Of a DNA stretch of 64,000 nucleotides, positions 17,072 through 64,000 are shown in pieces. Both the position numbers and the translations under genes were made by a program. Position 1 is the first letter of the stretch; every line of letters starts with the position of its first letter. Location: positions 2,922,322-2,986,321 of the forward strand of contig OZ241976.1 of NCBI GenBank assembly GCA_965204205.1, written 5' to 3'. A model generated the notes under the pieces. The model was not told where the DNA came from. It saw only the letters and a list, made by a program, of their open reading frames with translations, and did no database searches. The DNA comes from an uncultured Candidatus Binatia bacterium (GTDB lineage: Bacteria; Desulfobacterota; Binatia; UBA9968; JAJDTQ01).

Positions 17072-17121
17072 GAAGCGTTCTCCTGGCGGCATCGCTCCCA
17101 GGATGGCACCCTTCGGATGGG

Positions 17122-17246
17122 GCCGTTCGACTTCGCTTCGCGAAGCCTGTCCTGAGCTTGACGAAGGGCTCAGGGCGAACGGTTAGGTTGAGCGGTCGGA
17201 TCTACCCCGTTCGCCCTGAGCGAAGCGAAGCGAAGTCGAAGGGCGC
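17122..17246. repeat. nested inverted-repeat intergenic element, copy A
   Basis: Outer arms TTCGACTTCGCTTCGC / GCGAAGCGAAGTCGAAGG. Inner arms CTCAGGGCGAACGG / CCGTTCGCCCTGAG. Same architecture as copies at 26341-26452 and 39408-39546. Confidence 0.6.
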
Positions 17247-17293
17247 CATCTCAACGGATCCGAGTCTTCCTAAGCAACTTGTGACAACCGACA

Positions 17294-23148: not shown

Positions 23149-23230
23149 TAGGGGCGACCGGCGGGTCGCCCCTACGGGATCACACCGCCGCGTAGCGGCA
23201 ACCGTAGAGGTGGCCGGCGGTCGCCCCTAC
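23149..23230. repeat. REP-like palindrome (full copy 23149-23175 plus half copy 23211-23230)
   Basis: TAGGGGCGACCGGCGGGTCGCCCCTAC is a perfect 27-bp palindrome. It sits between convergent genes and could act as a bidirectional terminator. Confidence 0.5.
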
Positions 23231-26340: not shown

Positions 26341-26452
26341 CCTGAAATGCCGTCCTTCGACTTCGCTCGGCTTCGCCTCGCTACGCTCGGGACGAACGGT
26401 TGTGAATCCCATTTCCGCTCGTCCCGAGCGTAGCGAGGTCTGCCGAGCGAAG
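26341..26452. repeat. nested inverted-repeat intergenic element, copy B (inside the hyuA-hyuB operon spacer)
   Basis: Outer arms GTCCTTCGACTTCGC / GCGAAGTCGAAGGAC. Inner arms CGCTACGCTCGGGACGAACGG / CCGCTCGTCCCGAGCGTAGCG. Confidence 0.6.
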
Positions 26453-26481
26453 TCGAAGGACGCTTCAATTGATCTTGACTC

Positions 26482-37162: not shown

Positions 37163-37783
37163 CTACAACGGCGCGGGGTCCTCGAAGTTCTTGGTGTAGG
37201 GCAGCTTGCCCGCGGTCTTGTCGACCTCGGACATGTTGCCCAGGAGCAGCGCGGTGGAGTCCCACGAGCCCGTGGTCAGGGCGTTGCGGTGGCCGTCGCT
37301 GATGTCGAGGTCCATTTCGCTGCCGTCGGGCAGGCGGATCTTCCTGGCGTCGAGATCCACCGTGAGCTCCACCTGCGGATCGGATTCCGCCAGCGTCATC
37401 AGCGTCCCGATATCCTCGGACGAGACCATCACGGTGGGCATGCCCAGCAGCACGCTGCTACCGGCGAAGATGGGGCCGAAGGACTCGCCGATGATGACCC
37501 GGATGCCCCAGCGGTAGAGGGCCTGCGGGGCGTGCTCCCGCGACGAGCCGCAGCCGAAGTTGCGGTTCACCAGCAGCACCTCGGCGCCCTGGAAGCGGGC
37601 CTCGTTGAAGGGATGGTCCACGGGCTTGCCGCCGGAATCATAGCGTTCGTCGATGAACGGATACTCGCCCATGCGGCTGAAGGTGATCTCCTTGAGATAA
37701 CGGGCGGGAACGATCCGATCGGTGTCGATATCGTGTCCCCGCACGACCACGGCCCTGCCGCTTACCTGCCTGATCTCGCTCAT
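37163..37783 (-). CDS. leuD: 3-isopropylmalate dehydratase small subunit
   Basis: LeuD swivel domain. Start MSEIRQVSGRAVVV (rc cat 37781-37783) with GAGG 8 nt upstream. Confidence 0.9.
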   Translation of the reverse strand: MSEIRQVSGRAVVVRGHDIDTDRIVPARYLKEITFSRMGEYPFIDERYDSGGKPVDHPFNEARFQGAEVLLVNRNFGCGSSREHAPQALYRWGIRVIIGESFGPIFAGSSVLLGMPTVMVSSEDIGTLMTLAESDPQVELTVDLDARKIRLPDGSEMDLDISDGHRNALTTGSWDSTALLLGNMSEVDKTAGKLPYTKNFEDPAPL

Positions 37784-37798
37784 TCCGACCTCGTTGAG

Positions 37799-37955
37799 TG
37801 TTGCGTTCCACGAATACGTCGACGAATCTGCTGGTCCTTCTCGCCGTCGGCCGCGTTGCTCCTCCTCGCGTGGTACCGGCCACTGCTCGTCGTCGCGCCT
37901 TGCCGACGACAAGAAGTCCTGCGCATCTTCATCAACGTATTCGTGGAACGCAACA
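37799..37955. mobile_element. 157-bp MITE-like element, copy 1 (termini TGT...ACA, flanks TGAG / CTAG)
   Basis: Terminal inverted repeats TGTTGCGTTCCACGAATACGT / ACGTATTCGTGGAACGCAACA. Conserved about 90-bp core shared with copies at 45712-45868 (inverted) and 62881-63037. It fills the leuC-leuD spacer. Confidence 0.7.
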
Positions 37956-39353
37956 CTAGTTGTAATCCCGCACGTCCACGACCTTGCCGTTGAGCGCGGC
38001 CGCGGCCACCATGGCCGGACTCATCAGCAGCGTCCGCCCCTCCGGGCTCCCCTGGCGGCCGATGAAGTTCCGGTTCGACGATGAAGCGCACACCTCCCGG
38101 CCCTGGAGCTTGTCGGGGTTCATGGCCAGACACATGGAGCAGCCTGCCTCCCGCCACTGAAAGCCGGCCTCGGTGAAGACCCGGTCGAGCCCAGCCGCCT
38201 CCGCCTGCTTCTTCACTTCGACGGACCCGGGGACCACCAGGGCCCGCACGCCGGAGGACACCTGCCGCCCCTTGGCGACGCGCGCCGCGGCCACCAGGTC
38301 CGAAAACCGCGAGTTGGTGCAGGAACCGATGAATGCCACGTCGATGGGAGTGCCGAGGATCGGCGCCCCCGGCGTCCAGCCCATGTGCTGGTAGGCCTTC
38401 TCCACGGTCTGGGGATCCTTCAGGTCCTCGGGGCGGGGCATGTTCTCCAGCACGCCCAACGCCTGGCCGGGATTGATGCCCCAGGTGACCGTGGGCTCGA
38501 TGGCCGAGCCGTCGATGTCCACGACATCGTCATAGCCGGCGTCCGGATCCGACGCCATCGAGCGCCAGTACGCCGCCGCGCGGTCGAAGGCCTCGCCCTT
38601 GGGCGCGAACGGCCGTCCCAACAGGTACTCGAAGGTGGTGTCGTCGGGGTTGACGTAACCCACCAGGGCGCCGCCCTCGATGCTCATGTTGCAGACGGTC
38701 ATGCGCTCGTCCATGTTCATGGCATCCAGCACCGCGCCGCCGTATTCGTAGGCGAACCCCTTGCCGCCACCGACCCCGAGAGTCCGGATGATGGTCAGGA
38801 TCACGTCCTTGGCGTGCACCCCGAGGGGGAGGCTGCCGTTGACGTTGATGCGCCGCACGTCGAGCCGGTCCATGGACAGCGTCTGGGTCGCCAGCACGTC
38901 ACGCACCTGGCTGGTGCCGATGCCGAAGGCCAGCGTCCCGAAAGCTCCGTGGGTGCTCGTGTGGCTGTCGCCGCAGGCCAGGGTCATTCCCGGCTGGGTC
39001 AGGCCGAGCTGCGGGCCGATGACGTGCACGATGCCCTGGCGGTCGCTTCCCAGGCCGTAGAACTCGATGTCGAAGTCACGGACGTTCTTCTCCAGCGCCG
39101 CCATCATCGCCTCGGCCTGCTCGTCGGCGAAGGGCCGCACCTGGGTATCGGTGGGGATGATGTGATCGGCGGTGGCGAAGGTCCGCTGCGGATAGGCGAT
39201 GGAGAGCCCGCGCTCCCGCATCATGTCGAATGCCTGCGGGGTCGTGACCTCGTGGACCAGGTGCAATCCGATGAAGAGCTGGGTCTGGCCGGTGGGCAAC
39301 GTCGTCACCGCGTGGCTGTCCCAGACCTTGTCATAGAGCGTACGTTCGGACAT
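37956..39353 (-). CDS. leuC: 3-isopropylmalate dehydratase large subunit
   Basis: Aconitase-family Fe-S cluster Cys motifs. 465 aa. TAG stop codon lies inside the CTAG flank of MITE copy 1. Confidence 0.9.
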
Positions 39354-39407: not shown

Positions 39408-39546
39408 GCGTCCTTCGACTTCGCTCCGCTACGCTCAGGACGAACGGTGGTGGAACCCGTAGCTCCGGGCGAGTGGCTCGTGTAAGACCACGACTCCGTT
39501 CGTCCTGAGCGTAGCGCCGCGTTAGCGGCGCGAAGTCGAAGGACGC
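39408..39546. repeat. nested inverted-repeat intergenic element, copy C
   Basis: Outer arms GCGTCCTTCGACTTCGC / GCGAAGTCGAAGGACGC. Inner arms CTACGCTCAGGACGAACGG / CCGTTCGTCCTGAGCGTAGCG. Longer central loop than the other copies. It lies between truA and leuC. Confidence 0.6.
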
Positions 39547-39574
39547 CATCCAGCGGGCCGGCTCACCGCGGAGG

Positions 39575-40315
39575 CTATTCGTAGCGCACTTCCACCAGGA
39601 ACAGCCCCCGCGCCGGCGCGGTGGGACCGGCCAGCGTGCGGTCGCGGCCGTCTATCAGCGCCGAAAGGTCGCCGGCATCGCGTTCGCCCAGCCCTACCTC
39701 CACCAGCGTGCCGACGATGTTCCGCACCATGTGCCGGAGGTACCCGGTGGCCTCGATGCGATACACCCAGTGTTCCTCCCACCGGTACAGCTCGTTGTGG
39801 TAGACCCTCCGCACCGCTGTGGCCGCGCCACAGCCCGCGGCGCGGAAGCACGAGAAGTCGTGCTCCCCTTCCAGCGCGGCCAACGCCTCGCGCATGGCGT
39901 CGACGCGCAACGGCCTCGCCACGTGCCACGAGTAGCGATCGTTGAAGACCGACCGCCAGGGGTGGTTCCAGAGCCGGTACTCGTAGACGCGCCGGCGCGC
40001 GTCCCTCCTGGCGTCGAACGAGGGAAGCGCGGCCTCCGCCGCCTTCACCGTGATGTCGTCCGGGGTGAGGGCGTTGAGGCTGCGCTGAAGCCGCGCGAGG
40101 TCCCGGCCCTCGGGACACGCGAAATCGGCCACTTGTCCCAACGCATGGACGCCCGCGTCGGTCCGTCCCGACCCATGGACGCGCACCCGCTGCTTCAGCA
40201 GCACGGCCAGAGCCTCCTCCAGGACGCCCTGGACCGTCGGCCCGCCGGACTGGACCTGCCAGCCCCGGTATTCGGTGCCGTCGTACTCGATGGTCAGTCG
40301 GACGTTCATGAACAC
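39575..40315 (-). CDS. truA: tRNA pseudouridine(38-40) synthase
   Basis: N-terminal LTIEYDGTEYRGWQVQ and catalytic Asp context, 246 aa. Confidence 0.85.
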   Translation of the reverse strand: MFMNVRLTIEYDGTEYRGWQVQSGGPTVQGVLEEALAVLLKQRVRVHGSGRTDAGVHALGQVADFACPEGRDLARLQRSLNALTPDDITVKAAEAALPSFDARRDARRRVYEYRLWNHPWRSVFNDRYSWHVARPLRVDAMREALAALEGEHDFSCFRAAGCGAATAVRRVYHNELYRWEEHWVYRIEATGYLRHMVRNIVGTLVEVGLGERDAGDLSALIDGRDRTLAGPTAPARGLFLVEVRYE

Positions 40316-45685: not shown

Positions 45686-45711
45686 ACTAGTGTCGCGGGA
45701 CGCGACACTAG
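45686..45711. mobile_element. 17-bp fused-termini footprint (TGTCGCGGGACGCGACA) flanked by CTAG on both sides
   Basis: Its two halves equal the left (TGTCGCG) and right (GGGACGCGACA) ends of MITE copy 3 with the whole interior missing. It shares its right CTAG with MITE copy 2. Confidence 0.4.
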
Positions 45712-45868
45712 TGTGGTGTCTGGTTCATTCGCAGCATAATAGGCGGAGGATTTTTCGTCGTCGGCAAGGCGCGATGACGAGCAGTGGCGGGTACCACGCG
45801 AGGAAGAGCAACGCGGCCGACGGCGAAAAAGACCCGCAGATTATGCTGCGAATTAACCAGACACCACA
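45712..45868. mobile_element. 157-bp MITE-like element, copy 2 (core inverted relative to copies 1 and 3), flanked by CTAG / CTAG
   Basis: TIRs TGTGGTGTCTGGTTCATTCGCAGCATAAT / ATTATGCTGCGAATTAACCAGACACCACA. Core is the reverse complement of the copy 1 core. The right CTAG contains the ilvC TAG stop codon. Confidence 0.7.
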
Positions 45869-46885
45869 CTAGTTCTTGCTCTTGTCCACCAGCCGGTTCT
45901 CCGCCAGCCACGGCATCATCGAGCGGAGCTGCTCGCCCACCTGCTCGATGGGATGGCTGCGCGAAGCCTGGCGCAGCCCGTTGAAGTTGGGCGACCCGGA
46001 GCGGTGCTCGTTCATCCACTCGTCCGCGAACTTGCCCGACTGGATGTCCGACAGGATTTCCTTCATGACCTTCCGCGTATCGTCGTTGACGATGCGCCTC
46101 CCGCGGGTCAAGTCGCCGTACTCCGCGGTGTTGCTGACCGAGTAGCGCATGTTGGCCAGGCCGCCCTCGTAGATCAGGTCGACGATCAGCTTGACCTCGT
46201 GGCAGCACTCGAAATAGGCCATCTCCGGCGGGTAGCCTGCCTCCACCAGGGTCTCGTAGCCCGCCTGGATCAACGACGTGAGGCCGCCGCAGAGCACCGT
46301 CTGCTCGCCGAACAGATCGGTTTCGGTCTCGTCCTTGAAGGTGGTCTCGATGACCGCGGCGCGGGCGCCGCCGATGGCGGCGGCATAGGCCAGTCCCACG
46401 GGCTGGGTGTCCTTGGACGGGTCCTGATGGATAGCCAGCAGGCACGGCACCCCCCGGCCCCGTTCGAACTCGCTCCGCACCAGGTGTCCCGGGCCCTTGG
46501 GGGCCACCATGAAGACGTTGACGTCTTCCGGAGGCACCACGCGTTTGAAGTGGATGTTGAAGCCGTGTCCGAACGCCATGTAGTTTCCGGGCTTCAGGCC
46601 CGGCCGGATATCCTGCTGGTAGACCTCGCCCTGGAGCTCATCGGGCAACAGCACCATGACCACGTCCCCGGCTTCGACCGCCTCCGCCGTCTCCATGACC
46701 GTGAGGCCAGCGTCGGCCGCCTTGGCCCATGAAGCGCTGTCGCGGCGGAGTCCCACGACGACGTCCACGCCGGAGTCGCGCAGGTTGGTGGCGTGCGCGT
46801 GCCCCTGGCTGCCGTAACCGAGCACGGTGACCTTGCGGTCGCGAATACGGCTCAGATCCGCGTCCTGGTCATAGTAGACCTGCAT
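45869..46885 (-). CDS. ilvC: ketol-acid reductoisomerase
   Basis: Class I KARI. N-terminal Rossmann [10 protein letters not shown]. 338 aa. GGGAGG RBS. Confidence 0.9.
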
Positions 46886-62824: not shown

Positions 62825-62880
62825 GTTCCGTCCTCCCATGTTCCAGGAATCCTCTTCTTTCACGTCGAACACCCCACTAG

Positions 62881-63037
62881 TGTCGCGTCCCGCAAATAAG
62901 TGGCATAATTTGCTGGTCTTTTTCGCCGTCGGCTGCGTTGCTCTTCCTCGCGTGGTGCCCGCCACTGCTCGTCATCGCGCCTTGCCGACGACAAAAAATC
63001 CTGCGCAACTTATGCCACTTATTTGCGGGACGCGACA
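62881..63037. mobile_element. 157-bp MITE-like element, copy 3, flanked by CTAG / CTAG
   Basis: TIRs TGTCGCGTCCCGCAAATAAGTGGCATAA / TTATGCCACTTATTTGCGGGACGCGACA. Core collinear with copy 1. The right CTAG contains the TAG stop of the tolA-like gene. Confidence 0.7.
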
Positions 63038-64000
63038 CTAGCCATCCGAAGCGTCGGGCCGGAATTCGATCTCGACGTTCCCGAAGTCACGCGCATAGCG
63101 GGCCGGAGGCGGCGGCAAGCTGCTGGCGCGTACCGCCCGTACCACCGACTCGTCATAGGAAGGGTCCCCCGAGGACTTCAACAGCTTGAGACCGAAGATC
63201 TCCCCGTTGGCCCGAACCCCGAAACCGACGGTCACCTCGAGGTCCGTGCGTTTGCCGATCCAGGTCCAGCGTTCCTTGATCCGGCCGAGCATCTCGTTCC
63301 AATAGATCACGAACTCCCTGTCTCTGACGATGCCGCCGCCCGTGCCTCCGCCCGTGCCCGTACCCTTTGCGACCCGGGCCTCGCGCCGCAACCGGGCTCG
63401 CTCTCTGGCCGTGGCCAAGGCGTCGCCGATACGCCTGTCCTTCAGCCTTCGGACCAGCCGTGGGTCCTTCCCCGGATCGCGCTTGGGCTTCGGTTTCTTG
63501 GCGACCTTCTTGACGAGTTTCTTGGGAGTCTTGCGCGCGGGCTTCTTCCGCTTGACGACCTTCTTCGGCTTGGGTTTCTTGCGCTCGACGACCTTCTTCT
63601 TCGGTTTCTTGGGCTCCTTCTTGACCTTGGCCGGCGGCGCCTCTTTCTTCGGCTTCGGCGGTTCCGGCTTCCGCACGATCTTCTTGGGCGGAACCGGGAC
63701 CTTCTCCGGAGCCTCGACGGTTTCGGGCGGGTCCGGGACGGCGGGCTCGACGGCAACCTCGTCCAACGGATCTTCGTCGAGCGGCGGGAGCGGCTCGACA
63801 GGCAACGGTTCCGGCTCTTGCCGCTTGGGGCTTCGCGGTTCGGGCGGAGGCGCCGGCATGCTCCCCGCCACGAGGTCCACCGTGTACACGGGAATGGGAA
63901 GCTCCCGACGGGCGGTGCTCGACGGCACCACCAGCAACGTCAGGATCAGCACCAGATGAAGAGCGCCGGAAAAGCAGATCCACCATCTCAGCCGGTTGTC
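63038..64000 (-). CDS. TolA/TonB-like protein (partial, 5-prime end beyond the window)
   Basis: N-terminal TM segment, long Pro/Lys-rich periplasmic spacer (PKKPKK repeats), and a C-terminal TolA/TonB-type domain. The reading frame is open to the window edge. Confidence 0.6.
   Translation of the reverse strand, partial: DNRLRWWICFSGALHLVLILTLLVVPSSTARRELPIPVYTVDLVAGSMPAPPPEPRSPKRQEPEPLPVEPLPPLDEDPLDEVAVEPAVPDPPETVEAPEKVPVPPKKIVRKPEPPKPKKEAPPAKVKKEPKKPKKKVVERKKPKPKKVVKRKKPARKTPKKLVKKVAKKPKPKRDPGKDPRLVRRLKDRRIGDALATARERARLRREARVAKGTGTGGGTGGGIVRDREFVIYWNEMLGRIKERWTWIGKRTDLEVTVGFGVRANGEIFGLKLLKSSGDPSYDESVVRAVRASSLPPPPARYARDFGNVEIEFRPDASDG

Follow-up and report, generated by a model that had tools for sequence, protein, structure and literature searches.

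Introduction

A stretch of 64,000 nucleotides from an uncultured Candidatus Binatia bacterium (contig OZ241976.1 of assembly GCA_965204205.1, positions 2,922,322 to 2,986,321), hereafter called the window, carries leuC, ilvC, and a TonB_C/TolA-like gene on its minus strand. Each of these genes ends in a TAG stop codon that abuts a copy of the same short repeat. An initial annotation, made from the sequence alone, described the repeat as a 157-bp MITE (miniature inverted-repeat transposable element), related to the IS5 group of insertion sequences (ISs) and inserted precisely at amber stop codons. In this study, the three copies were compared with related copies from other Candidatus Binatia genomes, and an autonomous IS with the same ends was sought. 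The ends of the repeat point to the IS630 family, and its two arms covary around a centre that hardly changes.

Materials and methods

Copies of the element were collected by scanning one genome per species with an exact 27-nt core pattern, which gave at least 107 matching stretches. A profile built from these copies was run over the fetched loci (L001-L107) and the window, and its 142 nhmmer hits were reduced to 99 full-length copies after removal of double-strand duplicates. Relatives of the partner IS described below were fetched from other metagenome contigs; nine full IS copies were read, one of them on the megaplasmid of Ralstonia GMI1000. A relative of the window with 84-89% DNA identity (L171) was fetched through LeuA. 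The consensus fold was computed with RNAalifold from 79 aligned copies of 157 bp and comprises 54 pairs, or 4158 cells.

Results

Three copies of the element in the window

All three bodies of 157 bp with TGT...ACA ends that had been reported initially were found (Table 1). A degenerate core pattern of 33 nt occurs in the 64 kb at just these three sites, with none expected from shuffled sequences. The conserved core was also borne out; it spans approximately positions 31-127 and is ~95% identical among the three copies. The arms had been described as symmetrical within each copy and completely different between copies. The symmetry stands, as each copy is 89-97% self-complementary over 35-40 nt; the difference was overstated, as ~55-60% of arm positions are shared. 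In the outer 38 nt, ~40% of the positions differ among the three copies, and the fixed arm bases are TGT, G7-T8-C9, A16, A27-A28, and T31-G32-C33.

The flanks read TGAG/CTAG for copy 1 and CTAG/CTAG for copies 2 and 3, and in every copy the right-hand CTA forms the TAG at the end of an open reading frame (ORF) on the minus strand, both in agreement with the initial annotation. Pfam searches identified these ORFs as leuC (Aconitase), ilvC (KARI), and a TonB_C/TolA-like gene; leuD lies downstream of leuC, and a TolB gene lies downstream of the TolA-like gene. Look-ups of the LeuC and IlvC proteins of the window by exact sequence gave no record. The left TA of copy 1 has decayed to GA (37796-37797). 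CTAG is rare in the window, as had been supposed, with 23 occurrences against 57 expected from trinucleotide counts. The reported lack of a transposase in the window held as well, since tblastn with the 365-aa transposase of the partner IS gave no match there.

Table 1. Copies of the element and adjoining stop codons in the window
Feature	Position (strand)	Length	Remarks
MITE copy 1	37798..37956 (+)	159 bp with terminal G and C	TGT...ACA body 37799-37955; nhmmer E 1e-40; termini TGTTGCGT
leuC stop codon TAG	37956..37958 (-)		ORF 37956..39353; TA at 37957-37958 as right copy of the apparent TA duplication, G as terminal base of the element
Collapsed mini-copy	45690..45708 (no strand)		G-TGTCGCG GGA CGCGACA-C
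MITE copy 2	45711..45869 (-)	159 bp	Body 45712-45868; inverted relative to copies 1 and 3; termini TGTGGTGT
ilvC stop codon TAG	45869..45871 (-)		ORF 45869..46885; apparently rebuilt from the target TA and the terminal base of the element
MITE copy 3	62880..63038 (+)	159 bp	Body 62881-63037; the copy under which the finding was reported
TonB_C/TolA-like gene stop codon TAG	63038..63040 (-)		Gene 63038..63952; tolB start ~40-55 nt past the other end of the element

A mini-copy of 17 bp at 45691-45707 had been overlooked. It has CTAG on both sides, one of which is common with copy 2, and of the arms of the "CGCG" subfamily it retains only the outermost seven bases on either side. Comparable mini-copies adjoin full copies in L006 and L056 and likewise have a CTAG in common with them.

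Ends of the element and the target duplication

In each of the 99 copies, TGT is preceded by G and ACA is followed by C. The outer flank bases vary, with C81/T16/G1/A1 on the left (C in 82%) and G92/C4/A2/T1 on the right (G in 93%). CTAG/CTAG is the flank pair of 63 copies, which upholds CTAG as the target; other pairs include TTAG/CTAG (8 copies), TTAG/CTAA (2), TTAG/CTAC (2), and CTAG/CTAC (2), and the orthologous pair L068/L064 has the flanks xTAG...CTAA. Matching pairs other than CTAG, such as TTAG/TTAG or CTAA/CTAA, were found in none of the 99 copies.

A duplication of 4 bp is excluded by these counts. Positions -4 and +1, which should copy one base, vary in 18 and 0 of the 99 copies, respectively, and positions -1 and +4, which should copy another, vary in 0 and 7. 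The 4-bp YTAR duplication of the IS5 type that was first proposed could thus not be retained, given invariant inner G and C, independent outer bases, and no matching pairs except CTAG. On the simplest reading of the junctions, the element would be 159 bp long (GTGT...ACAC) and would duplicate TA within x-TA-y, where x is mostly C and y mostly G. Copy 1 fits the same model, as its flanks (T-GA-G ... C-TA-G) and the empty site in L171 (T-CA-G) share the outer T and G.

An IS630-family element with the same ends

The check proposed initially, a search for an autonomous IS with matching ends, was successful, and the IS belongs to the IS630 family. Searches for paired ends at most 6 kb apart and for multicopy ORFs returned only ABC-transporter paralogues. 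The partner was located via orphan ends, that is, element-like ends outside any MITE, at L042:6520-7666; it is 1147 bp long and flanked by CTAG/CTAG. A second copy with 99.8% identity is present in L077 (assembly OZ220712.1). The single ORF (L042:6573-7667) encodes 365 aa and matches NF033545, "IS630 family transposase", with 254.8 bits (cut-off 100), and Pfam assigns PF13358 DDE_3 together with HTH_23/28/29/32. This assignment replaces the IS5 group; no IS5-type element with these ends was found in ~0.9 Mb of Binatia loci.

The terminal bases of the IS, GTGnnnnGTCCC..., are also carried by the MITE. Read inwards, the right end of the partner (IRR), TGTCGCGTCCCGCAAATA, equals the arm of copy 3 over 18/18 nt. 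The IRR of the IS variant in L189-L191 begins with TGTGGTGT, as does copy 2, and that of the variant in L192/L193 begins with TGTTGCGT, as does copy 1; the IRR variant termini CGCG, GGTG, and TGCG hence match copies 3, 2, and 1, respectively. The left and right ends of the IS in L042 match at 15 of 20 positions, and no similarity is seen past approximately position 19.

The partner ORF crosses the right end (...TGC GGG ACG CGA CAC, encoding ...ICGTRH), and the TAG of the target then serves as its stop codon. The target supplies the stop codon in all nine full IS copies, and CTAG is found on both sides in eight of them; the left junction of L188 is irregular.

Both 1147-bp IS copies adjoin a MITE, with one CTAG in common (L042:6359-7670 and L077:5581-6892). 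The adjacent MITEs differ in arm subfamily; therefore, the two ISs are separate insertions beside pre-existing MITEs. Derivation of the MITE core from the 3' coding end of the IS was considered and rejected, because the apparent alignment was no better than shuffles once the arms were removed.

Distribution and turnover in Candidatus Binatia

All core matches listed came from Candidatus Binatia assemblies (19 assemblies, some under older names). Exactly 157 bp was the length of 79 of the 99 full-length copies, and minor length classes of 156-158, 179-181, 192, and 216 bp were present. The copies have the properties of a MITE, being short and multicopy, with arms of 28 bp or more and with only short reading frames of their own that bear no sign of selection.

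Orthologous pairs of filled and empty sites, with a net difference of 161 bp, were found between L030 and L037 (in both directions), L104 (filled) and L015 (empty), and L102 (filled) and L055 (empty). Copies 1 and 2 of the window are both absent from L171. At the position of copy 1, L171 has a simple empty site, the fifth such pair with a net difference of 161 bp, and its leuC stop codon is TGA where the window has TAG; at the position of copy 2, it has 46 nt of unrelated intergenic sequence. In L069/L082 and in L039/L046, the same orthologous site holds copies of different arm subfamilies, so sites are hit repeatedly and copies turn over. The family is a mobile element and not a fixed regulatory RNA gene. 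Individual copies have few private changes, and the arm subfamilies are common to several species; hence, the copies look young and the subfamilies old.

Two chimeric copies, L099:467-623 and L007:7290-7446, combine arms from different subfamilies, so that the outer stem cannot form. Each was seen once, and they probably arose when neighbouring copies recombined across their identical cores.

Association with stop codons

The stop codon of a long ORF with high GC content at third codon positions adjoins 34 of the 76 canonical copies (45%). The gene lies left of the element in 20 cases and right of it in 16 (two copies lie between two such genes and are counted in both), which gives no orientation preference. 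Among the unoccupied CTAGs of the same loci, 60 are at stop codons, 68 inside ORFs, and 86 elsewhere; stop codons thus make up 60/146 (41%) of the free non-genic CTAGs. With 45% of copies against 41% of available sites, the proposal that amber stops are special targets did not hold up. The association is a by-product, and CTAG specificity together with the loss of gene-disrupting insertions would produce it. At that rate, three stops among the three copies in the window have a chance of ~9%, which is unremarkable. With G as its first base and C as its last, the element rebuilds TAG on each side when it inserts in TA, so a gene hit in its TAG or TAA stop keeps a stop codon in place.

A coding role for the element was rejected. 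The frame whose first codon is the GTG that overlaps the left TAG stays open on both strands in 78% of the copies, and the same 78% results from a null model in which paired columns are sampled independently. The 32-aa ORF that starts with ATG is open in 62/79 copies, and the core has no synonymous-type variation. A frame of 58 codons was observed on the minus strand of copy 1 (37780-37956). It runs from a GTG that overlaps the leuC TAG (UAGUG) through the element and the degenerated left flank to a TGA that overlaps the leuD ATG (ATGA at 37783-37780), and it could preserve leuC-leuD translational coupling, but the comparison over the whole family gave no sign that the frame is under selection.

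Covarying arms around an invariant centre

RNAalifold predicted one long hairpin made up of 28+3 pairs in the outer stem, 12 in the inner stem, and a small stem-loop at the centre. Standard pairs occupy 98.7% of the 4158 cells. Both sides have changed in 32 of the 54 pairs, and a single position has as many as four types of pair. Not one of five measures was attained in any of 500 column shuffles, and sliding the partners by 1-3 columns left 31-50% pairing. The 50-nt centre (columns 55-104) is nearly invariant over 19 species-level genomes, and singleton changes are approximately half as frequent there as in the arms. The inner-stem variants follow the arm subfamilies, a tree-like divergence in which variation falls off from the free arms towards the frozen centre.

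The pairing reaches well beyond the ~19-bp terminal repeat of the IS, and the patch of highest variability (positions 18-26) is for the most part outside that repeat. Since the pairing extends past the repeat, one transposase binding both ends cannot account for it. Covarying, self-pairing arms around an unchanging centre are unusual for an element of this known kind.

The pairing is biased towards one strand. G.U-type cells number 180 on one strand versus 15 on the other, and the former strand folds better in 75/77 copies (-95.0 versus -82.5 kcal/mol). Counted as independent arm events, the bias is 28 versus 17, which is suggestive. A link to the replication strand was considered and dropped, because the orientation of copies on seven complete chromosomes has no relation to local GC skew (25/14 versus 14/13).

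The initial annotation had named membership of a known structured RNA family as one finding that would overturn a mobile element. Rfam 15 gave no match in the whole window at gathering thresholds, and an E-value search of the element returned only a chance match to RRE (E 0.62). No promoter-like or terminator-like site was found around copy 3.

Comparison with known elements

The closest known system is the IS870-like arrangement within the IS630 family. IS630 makes a 2-bp duplication in CTAG (PMC2577343, Table 1), and the putative TA duplication and the CTAG preference are shared by the element described here. For IS870, a stop codon taken from the CTAG target has been described, so that the transposase ORF is closed by the target TAG (cited in PMC13630536); the partner IS has the same arrangement. 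Among cultured organisms, the nearest example read lies on the megaplasmid of Ralstonia pseudosolanacearum GMI1000; the transposase of this IS630-family element is ~64% identical to that of the partner. Terminal repeats beginning with GTGTCC or GTGTCG and a transposase of 362-365 aa ending in ...GTxH are common to the IS630-family relatives and the partner. In contrast to these ISs, the window holds only a non-autonomous 159-bp derivative with an unrelated interior, and the MITE arms pair over 28 bp or more, whereas the terminal repeat of the IS is imperfect and ~19 bp long.

Correia/NEMIS, ERIC, and Nezha are bacterial hairpin-forming MITEs with a TA target, conserved termini, and a variable interior. 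The element resembles them in size (~100-160 bp), in the apparent TA duplication, in its intergenic or 3'-of-gene position in either orientation, and in a hairpin that takes in the whole element. Unlike them, it has an invariant centre and arms that vary with compensation, and its target is CTAG instead of plain TA. Bacterial MITEs in general have been reviewed (PMC2229807). The bcr1 repeat of the Bacillus cereus group is likewise a mobile repeat of ~155 bp whose fold is kept by compensatory changes (PMC3184786). It differs in its 5-bp direct repeats, its structure, its documented transcription, and the lack of an identified IS630 partner, and it is unrelated in sequence and host. MITEPsy1, an IS5-derived element of Pseudomonas syringae, also lands on CTAG or YTAA (PMC3189936); however, it duplicates all four bases, has IS5 ends of the GGAAGGT type, and is 100 bp long.

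Discussion

Proposed mechanism

The element is very probably a non-coding MITE of the IS630 type, 159 bp in length, which is moved in trans by an IS630-family transposase and inserts in the TA of CTAG. The mobilising enzyme would be the 365-aa transposase (HTH-HTH-DDE) encoded by the 1.15-kb IS in the same genomes. The insertion site would be the TA within C-TA-G or, more rarely, T-TA-G, and this TA would be duplicated; the terminal G and C would then rebuild CTAG, and hence TAG on each strand, at both junctions. Where the TA belongs to a stop codon, be it TAG or TAA, an insertion would leave the gene with an intact TAG and would therefore be tolerated and accumulate in either orientation. The parent IS would use the same geometry, with an ORF that continues across its right end as far as the target TAG. 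Each insertion would also create two new preferred targets, and since every insertion makes two new CTAGs, abutting copies, mini-copies, and full ISs that share a CTAG are to be expected. To stay mobile, a lineage would have to preserve the terminal bases, the fold-back structure, and the centre. Two reasons seem likeliest: the ends of an element of 159 bp may be able to meet only when it is extruded as a hairpin or cruciform, or the arms may be held identical by template switching from one to the other.

Several observations weigh against this interpretation. TA and CTAG are palindromic, so a duplication is not separable by sequence from an extension of the inverted repeat, and the TA duplication is our interpretation of the junctions. 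None of six orthologous element-free sites has TA (CCAG, GTGA, TGAC, TGGG, TCAG, and TCAG); these sites thus neither show the target before insertion directly nor tell TA from CTAG. Unoccupied CTAGs are conserved in 0/4 cases between the window and L171, compared with 40-65% for other tetranucleotides, and CTAG/CCAG differences recur (L030 and L037 were also compared). CTAG is therefore likely to turn over fast in these genomes, in line with its rarity, although the numbers are small and this is a caveat, not a result. The flanks are also asymmetric relative to the orientation of the core, with an outer T on the left in 13/80 copies and on the right in 2/80 (p=0.005), which symmetric insertion into a palindromic target would not lead one to expect. 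The interiors of the MITE and the IS have no significant similarity, and what would tie the MITE to the transposase is the termini that they share. Finally, a DDE transposase that binds double-stranded DNA need not require pairing past the terminal repeat, and the standard mechanism therefore does not account for the strong covariation or for the invariance of the centre.

Alternative explanations

Two alternatives would change the kind of element. The one proposed initially, an IS5-group MITE with a 4-bp CTAG (YTAR) duplication that is drawn to amber stops, is very improbable. The predominance of CTAG/CTAG flanks would suit it, and MITEPsy1 illustrates that IS5-type MITEs duplicating CTAG or YTAA exist; nevertheless, the unequal variation at paired flank positions, the missing TTAG/TTAG and CTAA/CTAA pairs, the termini of an IS630-family IS, and stop codons hit in proportion to their availability all argue against it. 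Scarcely more credible is a hairpin transposon of the single-strand type, like REPIN/RAYT or IS200/IS605 elements, inserting 3' of YTAG without duplication and bringing its own CTAG at the other end. Such an element would agree with the whole-element hairpin, the strand-specific pairing bias, and the variable left outer base (T in 16%) beside a nearly fixed right one, as if only the left tetranucleotide were the target. It is opposed by the termini and CTAG flanks that are common with bona fide IS630-family ISs and by the lack of relation between orientation and local GC skew; in addition, no HUH or RAYT gene turned up, though no systematic search aimed at them was made.

The other accounts concern the paired arms. 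The MITE may also be a functional structured RNA or single-stranded DNA hairpin, acting in the protection or processing of mRNA 3' ends, in regulation of the IS630 transposase, or as the mobilised substrate; this is possible, if doubtful. Functional folds typically reveal themselves by stems that covary around a conserved loop, and the pairing favours one strand. The lower frequency of singleton changes in the centre, the optional hairpin modules at fixed core points in the variants of 179-216 bp, and the precedent of the transcribed bcr1 with its compensatory changes (PMC3184786) point the same way. However, the random orientation to the upstream gene (20 versus 16) would place the wrong strand in half of the read-through transcripts, no promoter-like or terminator-like site or Rfam match was found, the strand bias is modest as independent events, and the fast turnover of copies speaks against a host-level function at single loci. 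It is unlikely that the arms are complementary without any selection, through intramolecular template switching at quasi-palindromes during replication, as a form of concerted evolution. Quasi-palindrome correction is an established mutational process, and the complementarity goes past the ~19-bp IS repeat and, in two copies, even into the host-derived TA flanks (CTGG/CCAG). Host flanks are not inheritable through transposition, and these two copies therefore count for template switching; the orthologous copies in L068/L064 also differ by a compensated change of T.A to G.C. This account leaves unexplained the near invariance of the non-palindromic centre beside arms that differ by ~40% between subfamilies, and the tree-like way in which the inner-stem variants follow the arm subfamilies. 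Moreover, uncompensated flank changes (~15) far exceed compensated ones (2), and chimeric copies with unmatched arms persist in L099 and L007. A bolder view, to which we likewise give little credence, takes the invariant 50-nt centre and the strand-biased, covarying hairpin to mean that one folded strand, RNA or single-stranded DNA, is the functional unit, either in structure-dependent transposition of a MITE of the Tc1/mariner type or as a domesticated RNA module at operon junctions throughout an entire candidate phylum.

Implications

For an IS630-type MITE, the practical consequence is that annotation of Binatia genomes has to reckon with many 159-bp inserts at gene ends and within operons such as leuC-leuD and tolA-tolB, from which gene callers will yield spurious ORFs of 32-53 aa. 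The family is a natural illustration of how ends of the IS630/IS870 type, with G...C around the TA of CTAG, may make insertion at stop codons neutral, each insertion seeding the next. The kind of element is already known, and the one feature that deserves experimental work is how the arms covary around an invariant centre. Arms that change in step beyond the need of the parent IS, around a frozen centre, offer a tractable case in which a fold-back requirement can be set against palindrome correction in short elements of the Tc1/mariner type.

Other repeats in the window

A second family of palindromic repeats is present in the window at 39408-39546, 26351-26462, and 17109-17257, and elsewhere at L086:1650-1802. 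Its outer arms read GCGTCCTTCGACTTCGCT.../...AGCGAAGTCGAAGGACGC and its inner arms CGCTACGCTCAGGACGAACGG/CCGTTCGTCCTGAGCGTAGCG. Halves of this repeat form the 24-35-bp inserts in the longer MITE variants (181-216 bp) of L005, L006, L035, L045, L064, and L065. Small GC-rich hairpins of the form TAGGGGCGACC...GGTCGCCCCTA occur in the window at 23149-23229, and such hairpins with other stem sequences occupy one fixed position of the MITE core in variants of L009, L031, and L035.

A segment of 3.1 kb in L171 (L171:14557-17698) was considered as a further mobile element and rejected, as it encodes parts of a TRAP transporter (DctM and an NMT1-like binding protein). At the corresponding place, the window (39410-39579) has only the repeat of the second family.

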